In this document: in pieces, positions 19,739 to 22,690 of the stretch
Numbering within the stretch: the stretch's first letter is position 1
Layout of the letters: every line of letters starts with the position of its first letter
DNA from: a virus
Strand: one strand, 5' to 3'
Length of the DNA stretch: 64,000 nucleotides
Virus record (IMG/VR): IMGVR_UViG_3300045988_129382
Coordinates: 136,033-200,032 of that record
Notes under the pieces: model-generated
The model's database searches: none
Seen by the model: only the letters and a program-made list of their open reading frames with translations
Told to the model about the DNA's origin: nothing
Program-made: the position numbers and the translations under genes

Positions 19739-19767
19739 TTTACAACAAAATGTAGATATGGTATTAT
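19739..19767 (+). promoter_or_regulatory. sigma70-like promoter (TTTACA - 17 nt - TATTAT)
   Basis: -35 at 19739-19744 and -10 at 19762-19767, about 155 nt upstream of the adhesin start codon. Confidence 0.4.
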
Positions 19768-19922
19768 GATTTTGCAAGGAATATTACATAAGTTTACAAC
19801 TTGTATTTGTAGACTTTTAATCATTGTCATGTAGGGTAAGTGATAATGACATATACGCACACATCTTTGTAATATTCCTTGTACGTATATTTCATTTAAT
19901 AATAAAAGAAAAGGGGTTTATT

Positions 19923-22643
19923 ATGAAATTACAAAAGAAAACTTTATTAAGTGGTTTGGTTATGGCATCTCTTGTTGGTAGCACAGCGATGGCAGCTGGT
20001 GTCGATAACACCGTAAATGGTGGTTTTGGTGCTGAAGCTTATGGTTATACCAATACTATCACTGCAACTGGAACTTCAGCATTTACAGTTGGTTATCAAA
20101 ATGAAGTGTCTGGTGCCAATAGTATTGCATATGGGCATAATAACAAAGCAACTGGTGCCAATAGTATTGCTGGTGGTGAAAATTCTGAAGCAAAAGGTTA
20201 TAGTAGCTTAGCTATTGGCTCATCCGCACAAGCATTGACAGAATATACCTACGCCATCGGTTCTCAGGCAAGAACTAATGGAAATAACACTGTTGCTGTT
20301 GGCAATGGAGCATATGCTAGTAATGATAATGCTCTAGCTATCGGCTCTAGTACTACAGCAGATGGTAAAGATGCTGTAGCTTTTGGTTCACATGTTCAGT
20401 CTAATTCTGAGCATACAGTAGGTATCGGTACAGCAGTTACTACTAAGAGTAACGATAGCATTGGTATCGGTCATGGAGTTGTGATTAATAAAAACAATAG
20501 TATCGGCATTGGTAGTGGGGTAGTTAATAACCTTGGTAATAGTATTGGTATCGGCAATGGAGTCGCTACTGACTTTAATACTATTGGTATTGGTAATGGT
20601 GTGGAAACTAAGGTTCAAGACACTATTGCTGTTGGTAATGGTGTAGTCTCCAATGGTGAATCTTCAGTAGCTATTGGTAATGCTATCCATGCCGATGGTG
20701 TTAAAACTGTAAACATTGGCACCAATGTTTCAGCTACAGGTGTATCTTCTATTGTTGTGGGTCGTGATACAACTGTAAATGGGGCTGACACTACAGTAGT
20801 AGGTGCAAACAATGGTACTGTTGGTGCTGACCAAAGTGCTGTTGTTGGTTATAACAACAAAGTACTAGATAGCTCTAAGGAACAGTTAATCTTTGGTTCT
20901 AACTCTCAAACTAAGAGTCAAGGCTCTGTTGTAGTTGGTTCTCATGCAAGTGCTACTGAAATTGATGCTCTTGCATTAGGCAACAACACTATTGCCGATG
21001 TACAGAATGGGGTAGCTATTGGCACCAATTCTGTAACAGAATTGGCTGTAGGTACATCTACAGTGAAAGACAATGCTACAGATATTCGTTTCTCTAACTC
21101 TACATTTGCTGGTTCTACACCTGACTCTGTTGTAAGCTTTGGTGCTAGTGGTCGTGCTGGTGCTGGTGGTGTAACAGAGTATACACGTCAGTTACAAAAT
21201 GTTTCTGCCGGTAGAATTTCTGCTACTTCAACAGATGCTATTAATGGTAGTCAATTATATGATACTGCATTAGAAGCCCAAAAGCATAACACTGTAGTAG
21301 ATGGTGTTAATACAACAGTTACATCTAAAGACAATGACTTTGGACGAAAAGAGTACAAGGTTAATGTTAATAAAACATTAAAAGATATGGATGCTGTTGA
21401 ATTTGGTAAAGTTACAGATAATAATCACGCAGGTATTAATAAAGATGGTGCTTATTTCTTTAATGGTAGTGAGCATATTAATATTAAACCTACAGGTATT
21501 CAAATTGAGAATACCGATACATTGACACAAGCTACATTCAATAATGAAGGTATGCAAGTGTCTGATGATAATGCTACTATTCGTTTTACTACTACAGATA
21601 TTAGTGCTGGTGGACAACAAATTCACGATGTTAAAGAGGGAACTAAGGATACAGATGCTGTTAATGTTAAACAGTTAAATGATAAAGCAAGTTCTCTAGA
21701 TAAGGCTATTACTAACAATACTTATAACATTTCTAAAAATGCTAATAAGATTGGTGAAAATGCTAATAATATCATAAAAAATGCATCTGACATTAAAGAT
21801 TTAGGTAGTAAAGTAAATAAAAATACTGCTGATATTAAATCTTTAGATGAAAAGATTAATGTTGTTGGCGAAGGTGCTGTAGTTAAAGCTAATCATTATA
21901 CAGATACACAAGTATCTAAAGTTGGTGCTAACGCTGCCGCTTTGAGTGCCTTGCATCCATTATCTTTCAATGCTAATGAAAAGGTTGAATATGCAGTAGG
22001 TTATGGTAACTATAAAGGTTCTAATGCTGTAGCAGTTGGTATGTTTGCTCATCCTAATGAAAATACATTATTATCTTTAGGTGCTACATTTGGTACTGGT
22101 GATAATATGGTGAATGCTGGTGCTACATTCCGTATTGGTAAATCTTCTAAACAAGTTACTAATACAAATACAGCTGTAGCTAAAGATGTTCAAGACTTAG
22201 CTAAAAAATATGAAGCATTGGCTCAAAAATACGATAATCTTGTTAAACATTTAAATGCTGTAGAGGGTACTGATTTTGATGTAGAATATCCTGATGTACC
22301 TAAAACACATTGGGCATATGATTTTGTTAAAGATTTATCTGATAAAGGTTTCTTAGTTGGTTATCCTGATAGCACATTCAAAGGTGATAAAGCTATGACT
22401 CGTTATGAGTTCGCAACTGCTTTATATCGTGCATTACAACGTGGGGCAGTAATGGATGCTAATATGGTTAAAGCTGTTAAAGAGTTTGAACCTGAGTTGA
22501 AAGATGTAGAAAAAGCACAACGATTTGTAGTTGTACGTGAAAGTGGTTCTGATAATGAAATTCACAAAGTTGAACGTGTTCAAGTAAACACTCAATATGG
22601 TGAACATACATATCGTGATGCTTATGGTACAGAATTGAAATAA
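19923..22643 (+). CDS. trimeric autotransporter adhesin (YadA-like head repeats, stalk, YadA beta-barrel anchor) with a C-terminal SLH domain
   Basis: Start at MKLQKKTLLSGLVMASLVGSTAMAAG (signal peptide) behind RBS AAAAGGGG. Many Hep_Hag-type repeats (GANSIAYGHNNKATGANSIAGGENSEAKG...). Neck motifs SATSTDAINGSQLYDT and TDAVNVKQLND. Anchor-like AAALSALHPL...GYGNYKGSNAVAVGMF...NAGATFRIG. SLH-like YPDVPKTHWAYDFVKDLSDKGFLVGYPDSTFKGDKAMTRYEFA at the C-terminus. Confidence 0.85.
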   Translation: MKLQKKTLLSGLVMASLVGSTAMAAGVDNTVNGGFGAEAYGYTNTITATGTSAFTVGYQNEVSGANSIAYGHNNKATGANSIAGGENSEAKGYSSLAIGSSAQALTEYTYAIGSQARTNGNNTVAVGNGAYASNDNALAIGSSTTADGKDAVAFGSHVQSNSEHTVGIGTAVTTKSNDSIGIGHGVVINKNNSIGIGSGVVNNLGNSIGIGNGVATDFNTIGIGNGVETKVQDTIAVGNGVVSNGESSVAIGNAIHADGVKTVNIGTNVSATGVSSIVVGRDTTVNGADTTVVGANNGTVGADQSAVVGYNNKVLDSSKEQLIFGSNSQTKSQGSVVVGSHASATEIDALALGNNTIADVQNGVAIGTNSVTELAVGTSTVKDNATDIRFSNSTFAGSTPDSVVSFGASGRAGAGGVTEYTRQLQNVSAGRISATSTDAINGSQLYDTALEAQKHNTVVDGVNTTVTSKDNDFGRKEYKVNVNKTLKDMDAVEFGKVTDNNHAGINKDGAYFFNGSEHINIKPTGIQIENTDTLTQATFNNEGMQVSDDNATIRFTTTDISAGGQQIHDVKEGTKDTDAVNVKQLNDKASSLDKAITNNTYNISKNANKIGENANNIIKNASDIKDLGSKVNKNTADIKSLDEKINVVGEGAVVKANHYTDTQVSKVGANAAALSALHPLSFNANEKVEYAVGYGNYKGSNAVAVGMFAHPNENTLLSLGATFGTGDNMVNAGATFRIGKSSKQVTNTNTAVAKDVQDLAKKYEALAQKYDNLVKHLNAVEGTDFDVEYPDVPKTHWAYDFVKDLSDKGFLVGYPDSTFKGDKAMTRYEFATALYRALQRGAVMDANMVKAVKEFEPELKDVEKAQRFVVVRESGSDNEIHKVERVQVNTQYGEHTYRDAYGTELK

Positions 22644-22657
22644 TTTCATAGTCTTAA

Positions 22658-22690
22658 AAGAGTAGGTAGATAATACCTACTCTTTTTTAT
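22658..22690 (+). terminator. rho-independent terminator
   Basis: AAGAGTAGGTA ... TACCTACTCTT stem followed by TTTTTATTTT. Confidence 0.85.

Follow-up and report, generated by a model that had tools for sequence, protein, structure and literature searches.

A predicted trimeric autotransporter adhesin with a periplasmic SLH module, encoded by a clade of ~200-kb phages from human metagenomes

Most of what is known about surface adhesins carried by phages concerns factors of lysogenic conversion in temperate phages of proteobacteria. Among these are the Eib proteins of Escherichia coli (EibA/C/D/E/F/G), which are trimeric autotransporter adhesins (TAAs) encoded by temperate prophages of the lambdoid type and displayed on the bacterial surface. 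The gene described here, found in a stretch of 64,000 nucleotides (positions 136,033 to 200,032 of the IMG/VR virus record IMGVR_UViG_3300045988_129382; the whole of this stretch is referred to as the window), specifies a predicted TAA of 906 residues that is likewise carried by a phage and is known from its sequence alone. However, whereas the Eib proteins end at the membrane anchor, this protein continues into a predicted periplasmic coiled coil and an S-layer homology (SLH) domain, its gene is part of a ~200-kb jumbo phage whose host is very probably a diderm member of the Bacillota, and it is widespread in a large phage clade. Searches of the adhesin against phage records and the Protein Data Bank (PDB) revealed no similarity in sequence to the Eib proteins. 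Another system involving a phage of an oral bacterium, viz. PblA and PblB of the Streptococcus mitis phage SM1, is also said to alter the adhesive properties of the host cell; however, these are reportedly tail proteins of the virion that re-bind to the cell wall after lysis, and not outer-membrane autotransporters exported by the Sec system.

The order of domains in this protein, from the signal peptide through to the C-terminal tail, is the same as that in the SLH-type TAAs of Negativicutes (viz. those of the Veillonella parvula VtaG/VtaH type). All TAAs of V. parvula contain an extra C-terminal domain after the anchor (Bechon 2020, PMC7549365) and, of the TAAs in UniProt, only those from Negativicutes possess a long periplasmic domain with an SLH (Dorison 2026, bioRxiv 10.64898/2026.01.22.700529). 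The V. parvula TAAs drive autoaggregation, co-aggregation and biofilm formation (Dorison 2026; Bechon 2020), and the WAY and TRYE motifs of the SLH, which were mutated in VtaG, govern the localisation of this protein (Dorison 2026). Phages are mentioned in neither of these studies. The Negativicutes proteins differ from the adhesin described here in being chromosomally encoded, whereas the latter is encoded by a phage and shows phage-like codon usage, and the named bacterial relatives are annotated with extended signal peptide regions (ESPR), whereas the phage protein has a short signal peptide of the classical kind. In the full-text literature (open-access papers and preprints), TAAs were found to be described neither for jumbo phages nor for phages that infect Negativicutes. 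What is new here is a complete type Vc adhesin carrying the Negativicutes-specific SLH module, which is maintained by purifying selection across many jumbo phages, and these phages are common in human metagenomes, apparently of oral origin. The interpretation favoured by us, to which we assign a probability of about 0.6, is that this is a functional phage gene transcribed by the host RNA polymerase, whose product is a phage-specified adhesin on the infected cell that alters adhesion or aggregation in a manner aiding local transmission.

Architecture of the protein and its Negativicutes affinity

The open reading frame (ORF) of the adhesin extends from 19824 to 22643 on the plus strand. The TTG at 19824 is only its mechanical start, the biologically sensible one being the ATG at 19923, which has the sequence AAAGGGG 6 nt upstream of it and gives the product of 906 residues. 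The initial annotation of the window, which was made from the sequence without database searches, had described this product as a TAA with a signal peptide, head repeats, neck and stalk motifs, an anchor, a coiled coil and an SLH domain, and this description agrees with the Pfam matches, with inspection of the sequence and with a helix in a structural model. Every Pfam match obtained is above its gathering cut-off: YadA_head is found in five stretches (E 7.7e-17), YadA_stalk in two (one of them at residues 566-606), YadA_anchor at residues 683-736 (E 5e-11) and SLH at residues 789-831 (E 5e-10). The three elements by which a TAA is recognised, viz. a Sec signal peptide, a passenger made up of head, neck and stalk, and a YadA-like anchor, are all present. 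The similarity to the named TAAs in NCBIfam (EmaA, Ata and YadA) is only partial and far under the cut-offs of these families, due to which the protein is a TAA but not the orthologue of any characterised one.

The N-terminus, consisting of the basic stretch MKLQKK followed by a hydrophobic core and a predicted cleavage site between AMA and AG, has by inspection the form of a canonical Sec signal peptide. A signal peptide of this kind (basic N-terminus, hydrophobic core and AxA-type site) is retained in 30/30 of the phage homologues despite the divergence of its sequence. The head that follows contains YadA-head (Hep_Hag) repeats with a period of 14 residues, and its matches in the PDB are to the heads of BpaC, YadA and UspA1. 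The initial annotation spoke of dozens of these repeats; their presence is borne out, but their number is ~20 units (25 motif matches within residues 1-480), for which "about two dozen" is the better description. Residues 211-400 of the head are among the best-conserved parts of the protein (column identity 0.82-0.94), and the neck motifs, whose region matches neck fragments of SadA and BpaA in the PDB, are invariant across 8 divergent phage variants. The stalk coiled coil, in contrast to these, is the most variable segment and it is deleted or expanded among the variants. The anchor matches in sequence the YadA anchor 2lme and also the PDB entry 9gh4, and its strands would build one third of a trimeric barrel in the outer membrane. 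In an AlphaFold2 model of the C-terminal 287 residues as a monomer, which has a mean predicted local distance difference test score (pLDDT) of 45 and where only the SLH domain reaches 72-84, the anchor shows 4-5 strands, this count coming from the low-confidence model alone. The model was used for secondary structure only and not for fold searches. It also shows a helix of ~30 residues after the anchor (about residues 750-780), which is aligned with the post-anchor coiled coil of 9gh4. Hence, as is characteristic of the TAAs from Negativicutes, the anchor of this protein is not C-terminal, but is followed first by a short coiled coil and then by an SLH domain.

The above features also bear upon the possibility that the protein is a YadA-like tail or capsid fibre of the virion serving in host recognition. 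PHROGs contains families with YadA-like repeats (phrog_20057 and phrog_10464), and the structural genes of the phage begin only about 7-10 kb downstream of the adhesin. However, a conserved Sec signal peptide, a barrel anchor and a periplasmic peptidoglycan-binding domain, all of them under purifying selection, are incompatible with assembly of the protein into virions in the cytoplasm. Further, the gene is located among replication genes behind a promoter of the host type, and no other ORF in the window resembles this protein. A role as virion fibre is thus effectively excluded.

The SLH domain of the adhesin aligns (E 6e-9) with the SLH domains of PDB entries 8bz2, 8bys and 8bym, with which it shares the motifs HWAY, GYPDxTFKG and TRYE, the sequences HWAYDF and MTRYEF being the corresponding ones in the adhesin. 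We take these three entries, which are labelled only as "S-layer homology domain-containing protein", to be OmpM of V. parvula. In OmpM so identified, a trimeric coiled coil on an outer-membrane barrel gathers the SLH domains, one from each chain, into a three-fold assembly, as is also predicted here. However, the SLH of OmpM is N-terminal, whereas the order in the adhesin is reversed (barrel, coiled coil and then a C-terminal SLH), and the barrel of OmpM is a porin, whereas that of the adhesin is predicted to be an autotransporter anchor of 3 x 4 strands. Based on its homology to the SLH domains of OmpM and VtaG, the SLH of the adhesin is predicted to bind peptidoglycan as a trimer, and the peptidoglycan bound would be of the polyamine-modified kind. 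The SLH domain is followed by a tail, the core of which (ERVxVN...RDxYGT) is invariant in all of the phage variants, including the SLH-less variant of the sister phage L094. This core is also found in a TAA from Dialister invisus, and its ERVRVN part in a TAA from Veillonellaceae bacterium DNF00626, suggesting that the tail is a conserved periplasmic element of Negativicutes TAAs that has not been described earlier.

The bacterial relatives of this C-terminal module were examined by an exhaustive search of representatives of 50%-identity clusters with the last 267 residues as query, which gave 702 representatives at E <= 1e-30. The best cluster matches, in proteins of 362-4027 aa, span the whole module (about residues 22-266 of the query) with 40-54% identity. 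Although most clusters consist of unnamed metagenomic proteins, and only ~6 of some 20 sampled clusters carried a name, the named homologues were always from Veillonellaceae, viz. Dialister invisus (50% identity), "Colibacter massiliensis" (now Megasphaera coli; 50%), a Megasphaera sp. (42%) and a metagenome-assembled genome (MAG) of Veillonellaceae. Over the anchor, coiled coil, SLH and tail together, the identity to the TAAs from Dialister invisus, Megasphaera, Veillonellaceae DNF00626 and the Veillonellaceae MAG is 43-54%. A single scan of bacterial genomes with very specific peptide patterns gave 3 loci only, which include a 1585-aa TAA of Veillonellaceae bacterium DNF00626 (43% identity from anchor to tail) and Dialister micraerophilus; hence the picture of the nearest homologues rests mainly on the clustered search and on the names of the clusters.

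The initial annotation had regarded a TAA with an SLH domain after the anchor as characteristic of Negativicutes, and had suggested a host of this kind. The first of these statements is in accordance with the published work on V. parvula noted above and, as no named nearest homologue of the anchor and SLH lies outside the Negativicutes, such a host is also the best inference from the present results. An outer-membrane protein that depends upon Sec and BAM and carries an OmpM-like SLH needs a diderm host with a wall to which SLH domains bind, and the homologues of the anchor and SLH module are from Veillonellaceae wherever they are named, in human samples; because of this the host is very probably a Negativicute of the order Veillonellales. 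The affinity of the capsid protein of this phage to those from phages of Bacillota is in agreement with such a host. In the supplementary table of Carr et al., oral jumbo myoviruses of ~203-211, 234 and 284 kb are listed with CRISPR-predicted Veillonella hosts and others of 226-233 kb with CRISPR-predicted Selenomonas hosts. The sizes of these phages overlap those of the contigs bearing the TAA, and the sequencing run of the window (ERR589711) does not appear in that table; this agreement, with no link in sequence, is circumstantial.

Distribution, modular variation and selection in the phage clade

The window is part of a ~200-kb phage. A protein identical to the adhesin is encoded on a contig of 200,143 bp from a human metagenome, its homologues are located syntenically on phage contigs of 196-236 kb, and genes for a portal, a prohead protease and a major capsid protein are present in the window, so that the earlier description of the gene as phage-encoded is well founded. 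All four domains are shared by each of the 120 best database homologues, which are ~873-920 aa long, show 64-92% identity and are mostly on contigs of 190-236 kb; many large phage contigs of human metagenomes carry homologues with 40-92% identity. In IMG/VR, 34 loci of the adhesin were identified by a strict scan and 437 TAA-encoding stretches by a permissive one; the best 80 of the latter are on contigs of up to 285 kb and show 40-92% identity. One of these relatives (L163; IMGVR_UViG_3300008514_000002, 284,996 bp) has a TAA with 51% identity. When contigs of at least 199 kb were selected by a match to the capsid protein, 6/8 were found to carry the adhesin under the strict scan. The adhesin is thus widespread in this clade rather than sporadic, and it is present in all of the contexts examined.

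The genomic position of the gene is also shared. In the 92% identical relative L001 and in the sister phage L094, it occupies the same slot as in the window, the order of genes being HU ... metallophosphatase, an ORF of no assigned function, TAA, a small ORF, an intein-containing clamp loader, a DUF2828 protein and a sigma-like factor. In L002 (79% identity) and L003 (65%), the gene is again located in the replication region, a few genes after HU, with other neighbours. The proteins in this slot appear to evolve in a modular manner. Blocks of head repeats are deleted in variants of 713 and 756 aa, an additional unit of neck, beta-domain and stalk is inserted in variants of 1198 aa, and two types of the anchor-SLH module, with 59-64% identity to each other, are swapped between proteins that are otherwise similar. 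In variants of 448 and 600 aa, the SLH domain is cleanly absent whereas the anchor, coiled coil and tail are retained. One example of this kind is the 600-aa TAA encoded at 8001-9803 of L094 (cf. P0154 and P0156), which is located in the same slot and has a different head, and many of the matches among the best 80 of the 437 IMG/VR stretches end after the anchor or the coiled coil. The phage variants with and without an SLH thereby mirror the two types of TAAs in V. parvula, which have either a coiled coil only or a coiled coil and an SLH.

Evidence for selection was obtained from the ratios of nonsynonymous to synonymous substitutions (dN/dS), calculated by the pairwise Nei-Gojobori method for 424 pairs of phage homologues limited to dS values of 0.05-1.5; due to the simplicity of the method and the recombinant nature of some modules, these values are crude. 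The overall ratio is 0.32, and by region it is 0.10 for the neck, 0.18 for the SLH, 0.22 for the second half of the head, 0.29 for the anchor and 0.84 for the stalk coiled coil. Because of these low regional values and the signal peptides retained in all 30 homologues, it appears that export, membrane anchoring, binding to peptidoglycan and the head are all under purifying selection in the phages.

These results are relevant to the question of whether the gene is a recently captured host gene, or a chimera of assembly, with no role for the phage. The initial annotation had mentioned the acquisition of a host gene as an alternative and, if the composition alone is considered, it may be seen as supporting this, since the local G+C content is 40% in comparison to ~30% in the flanking regions and the gene is a site of reduced GC skew. 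However, only codon positions 1 and 2 contribute to the excess of G+C, which reflects the abundance of Gly, Ala, Val and Thr in the protein. At third positions, the G+C content (GC3) is 0.167 and thus lower than the average for the phage (0.222 +/- 0.029). The synonymous codon divergence of the adhesin (0.057) is likewise within the range for other large genes of the phage (0.021-0.065). The island of high G+C content, considered as a sign of recent transfer, is ruled out by these two measures. Further, the gene is present in dozens of independent assemblies, its dN/dS ratio is that given above, and it shares only about 50% identity with the closest homologue from bacteria. A neutral recent capture is therefore effectively excluded, and in this form the alternative of an acquired host gene is not upheld; the evidence instead points to an old, fully adapted gene that has long been resident in these phages.

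The values for the SLH domain might also be taken to indicate that the protein functions primarily as a stabiliser of the envelope, where the tether between SLH and peptidoglycan adds links between the outer membrane and the wall during a long jumbo-phage cycle and the passenger is of secondary importance. The strong purifying selection on the SLH and its close resemblance to the SLH of the OmpM tether (as identified above) are in keeping with this. However, variants without an SLH occupy the same slot in sister phages and are numerous among the best 80 of the IMG/VR stretches, the passenger is constrained at least as strongly as the SLH, and in V. parvula the SLH of VtaG makes no measurable contribution to anchoring (Dorison 2026). 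A primary function of this kind is very improbable.

Expression of the gene and its proposed role

The adhesin gene is predicted to form a transcription unit of its own in the window. The initial annotation placed strong terminators on both sides of the gene and a promoter-like element before it, and all three are supported. Both terminators have stems of 13 bp followed by U-runs, and none of 200 shuffled sequences was equally stable for either of them (-15.1 kcal/mol and z -6.05 for the upstream one; -17.2 kcal/mol and z -6.63 for the downstream one). The upstream terminator is retained in L001, L007-L019 and L094. The putative promoter is of the sigma-70/sigma-A type with an extended -10 element, the TG of which is common in promoters of Bacillota. 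Its sequence (GGGGTTTACA...TGGTAtTAT) is conserved in the sub-lineage of the window and in L094, and it is found in a variant form in L027, L028 and L034. The plus strand of the window has 10 matches to this motif; 4 of them lie outside ORFs of at least 120 aa, and each of these 4 is ~90-160 nt upstream of the start of a gene. As the promoter is of the host type with an extended -10 element, while the phage encodes a sigma-like factor of its own, it suggests that the adhesin is transcribed by the unmodified host polymerase and, therefore, probably early. From about the predicted start of transcription, the mRNA would carry a structured leader of ~107 nt (-38.7 kcal/mol, z -4.5, with 0/200 shuffled sequences as stable), which matches no Rfam family. 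Six sequences representing 3 sub-lineages retain its closing helix; compensatory changes are seen at 3 of the pairs and none of the pairs is mismatched, although in 2/6 sequences the position of the innermost pair is taken up by an alignment gap, and the covariation comes from few independent lineages. This leader may be a stabiliser of the 5' end or a regulatory element. A second promoter-like TTTACA at 19793 was considered, but it is better explained as an arm of a hairpin in the leader.

The above organisation had earlier been called moron-like, and the genes for Lom and Bor, the morons of phage lambda, indeed resemble the adhesin in that they specify proteins of the host envelope from within a phage genome, and in that the adhesin possesses its own promoter and terminator in the window and in relatives of the L001, L094 and L027 type. 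However, the other attributes of a moron are not seen: the adhesin is not foreign at its synonymous sites, it is not sporadic in its occurrence, and in L002 and L003 the cassette is absent and the gene abuts or overlaps the ORFs upstream of it, being embedded in an operon. The adhesin also belongs to a different protein family from that of Lom or Bor.

The self-contained cassette is nevertheless the classic layout of a moron that is expressed independently of the lytic programme, and it thus raises the possibility that the adhesin, similar to the Eib proteins, is a factor of lysogenic conversion or of a carrier state. In such a case the phage would be resident and the bacterium would gain in colonisation, immune evasion or immunoglobulin binding, with only an indirect benefit to the phage. 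There is a precedent for this in prophage TAAs, with EibD of ECOR-9 being listed as encoded by a temperate phage (PMC8065619). However, in addition to the absence of the cassette in L002 and L003, no integrase or repressor was found among the screened ORFs of the window (a subset of its ORFs), and the contigs are free-standing and of ~200 kb, with no flanking bacterial DNA in the loci examined. Further, a fragment of a ~207-kb phage with Veillonella as predicted host, which may or may not be related to this clade, has been called virulent (PMC13532340). On balance, a conversion or carrier-state role appears quite improbable.

In the mechanism that we favour, transcription of the gene from the host-type promoter would be carried out by the host RNA polymerase, probably early in infection, giving an mRNA with the structured leader. 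The product would be exported by Sec, and its C-proximal anchor would trimerise into a barrel in the outer membrane by means of the BAM machinery of the host, with the passenger of head, neck and stalk being threaded to the cell surface. Unlike in proteobacterial TAAs, the chain would then extend into the periplasm by way of a short coiled coil and thereby bring together three SLH domains that would bind to polyamine-modified peptidoglycan in the manner of the OmpM tether of the host. This molecular pathway, from Sec export to the three-fold assembly of SLH on peptidoglycan, is very likely to be correct because of the established biology of TAAs and the data from Negativicutes. The infected cell would in this way display an adhesin fibre specified by the phage, and the change in adhesion or aggregation would keep it among susceptible cells or partner species in the dense biofilms of the mouth or gut, so that the large and slowly diffusing virions are released beside new hosts. 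The sequences themselves show that the gene is intact, what its architecture is, that it resides in a phage, that it is under purifying selection and that it has affinity to Negativicutes; the timing of expression, the display on the surface, the binding to peptidoglycan and the benefit for adhesion and transmission are all steps which we infer.

The preference for adhesion or aggregation as the function of the fibre is based on three considerations: the passenger and anchor form the invariant core of these proteins, whereas the SLH is open to loss; constraint is strongest on the head and neck; and the TAAs of this family in the hosts drive autoaggregation, co-aggregation and biofilm formation. 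However, a number of observations weigh against this interpretation. The strong conservation of the head could also reflect some function other than adhesion. In the pattern-limited scans (the strict scan and the best 80 of the 437 stretches), no TAA match was found in 2/8 of the capsid-matched contigs of at least 199 kb. The nearest bacterial match, as already noted, is only about 50% identical, and the head is only 28-33% identical to those of the TAAs sampled by C-terminal similarity, except for P0204, a match of 1,198 aa whose head is 54% identical and which looks like a long phage variant. The passenger would accordingly seem to be a speciality of the phage lineage. Further, VtaG is the only SLH-containing TAA of V. 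parvula with an identified function, and the lack of a measurable gain in anchoring from its SLH is to be considered here as well (Dorison 2026).

The expression of the gene from a promoter of the host type could also serve a different purpose, viz. superinfection exclusion or the shielding of receptors. Here a layer of fibres, or contact between the head and a receptor, would block the adsorption of competing phages, or the re-adsorption of progeny to infected cells and debris, and any adhesion would be incidental. Exclusion is a well-known role of certain outer-membrane proteins encoded by phages, examples being Llp of T5 and Cor of lambdoid phages; the host-type promoter would provide protection from the start of infection, and the wide occurrence of the gene across the clade is as expected for a trait useful in competition between phages. 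However, the adhesin matches no defence or exclusion family in PADLOC, a generic shield would not need the strong constraint that is seen on the head and neck, and the variation in the length of the head (in proteins of ~713 to 1198 aa) is in accordance with the modular evolution of an adhesin. Exclusion or shielding as the primary function is thus unlikely.

If the adhesin is displayed during infection, then it would alter the aggregation and co-aggregation of organisms which act as bridges in oral biofilms (e.g. Veillonella and its relatives), and its gene could be used as a sequence-based marker of the host for an uncultured clade of phages. A broader proposal, which is possible but doubtful, is that a large and globally distributed group of human-associated jumbo phages of Negativicutes (Veillonella, Dialister, Selenomonas and relatives) systematically re-dresses the infected cell with an adhesin that has evolved in the phages, thereby steering whether the doomed cell sticks to its kin or to partner species in the biofilms of tongue and plaque; adhesion would then be a trait of transmission and the modular variants would be adaptations to different hosts or partners. 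The natural variants, with or without SLH and with heads of different lengths, are well suited for tests of the periplasmic domains of TAAs from Terrabacteria, a question that was left open by Dorison 2026.

Genomic surroundings of the adhesin gene

The features of the adhesin locus and the main genes around it are listed in Table 1.

Table 1. Positions in the window of the elements of the adhesin locus and of other phage genes
Feature	Position	Strand	Basis
Gene for HU	~14.6 kb		
Intrinsic terminator ending the upstream transcription unit (after a 286-aa ORF)	19662..19698	+	13-bp stem (19662-19692), 5-nt loop, U-run
Putative sigma-70/sigma-A-like promoter: -35 TTTACA, 17-nt spacer, extended -10 TGgTATTAT	19739..19767	+	10/12 consensus matches plus TG
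Structured 5' leader of the adhesin mRNA (predicted): 14-bp closing helix around hairpins, conserved UAGGGUA loop motif	19775..19881	+	Fold energy, covariation
Ribosome-binding site AAAGGGG, 6 nt before the ATG	19910..19916	+	Direct reading of the sequence
Coding sequence, predicted 906-aa TAA	19923..22643	+	Stop codon at 22641-22643
Sec signal peptide, residues 1-24, predicted cleavage between AMA and AG	19923..19994	+	Inspection of the sequence
Passenger head, left-handed beta-roll, residues 26-400	19998..21122	+	Pfam YadA_head; 14-residue spacing; PDB matches
Neck 1 (STDAINGSQLY), short coiled coil, beta-rich domain with GIN motif, neck 2 (DTDAVNVKQL), residues 401-600	21123..21722	+	Motifs, PDB, Pfam
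Stalk coiled coil, residues 601-660	21723..21902	+	Column identity ~0.4
YadA-type membrane anchor, residues 661-745: helix and beta-strands	21903..22157	+	Pfam YadA_anchor; matches to 2lme and 9gh4
Periplasmic coiled coil, residues 746-785	22158..22277	+	Helix in model; alignment to 9gh4
SLH domain, residues 786-845, with WAY and TRYE	22278..22457	+	Pfam SLH; PDB alignment
Conserved C-terminal tail (EFEPEL ... ERVxVN ... RDxYGT)	22458..22640	+	Invariant residues in phage variants
Intrinsic terminator ending the adhesin transcription unit	22656..22694	+	13-bp stem (22656-22686) and U-run
Clamp loader (DNA_pol3_delta2), interrupted by an intein	23134-25473		Intein_splicing match on an identical 779-aa product
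Sigma-like factor (sigma-70 region-2-like)	28185-28763		
Portal	32009-33727		
Prohead protease	48189-50009		
Major capsid protein	50067-51509		

Within this gene array, all ORFs of at least 120 aa are on one strand, with two shorter ORFs on the minus strand inside them; homing endonucleases are also encoded in the window, and no tRNAs were found in it. The nearest isolated relatives of the capsid protein are from large myoviruses of Bacillus, Listeria and Streptococcus, with 31-40% identity. A megablast search of 9 kb around the adhesin gene against 50,697 phage records gave no match, and a tblastn search of the adhesin against phage records identified only a Hep_Hag protein from Salmonella (26.6% identity) and the SLH of a cyanophage porin; because of the lack of any related phage in these results, there appears to be no related isolate that has been sequenced.

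Several other observations were made on this genome and its relatives. In addition to the clamp loader, inteins are present in the next large gene of the relatives, as the homologues of 29930-31996 in L001 and L094 are proteins of 1111-1258 aa with matches to Intein_splicing and LAGLIDADG. The gene for the capsid protein is uninterrupted in the window, and of the two ORFs that come after it (in the region 50067-53885), at least one is for a homing endonuclease. In many of the relatives (L048-L093), the match to the capsid protein is split into two parts, viz. residues 1-275 and 267-480, which are 1-2 kb apart, and this suggests the insertion of an intron, an intein or a homing endonuclease. 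A DUF2828/DUF7788 protein (phrog_850 "RNA-binding protein", E 1.7e-116) adjoins the sigma-like factor at 26512-28763, and this pair is conserved beside the adhesin slot in L001 and L094.

A transposon-associated protein, TnpB of the IS605 family (matches to OrfB_IS605 and Cas12f1-like_TNB), is encoded at 56157-57275 and another one is present in L002. This protein was considered as a possible clue to the host. However, none of its 120 best homologues (64-95% identity) is NCBI-sourced and, where these are carried on long contigs, the contigs are nearly all of ~190-215 kb and represent the phages themselves; because of this, the TnpB is to be regarded as a phage-resident element, uninformative about the host, whose family is diversifying inside the phage clade and is not shared with the hosts.

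In the region 704-13680 of the window, there are tandem ORFs of ~225-288 aa on the same strand (18 between 16 and 14511), of which 11 fall into loosely linked groups of diverged paralogues, mostly with 23-35% identity over alignments of more than 100 aa. These ORFs show no convincing match in Pfam or PHROGs and they constitute an expanded gene family of the phage. Lastly, the GC skew is strongly positive throughout the window (about +0.16 to +0.43 in every 1-kb bin of 1-64000), and it is roughly halved (to about 0.16-0.18) at the adhesin gene, at 25-26 kb and at 50-52 kb.

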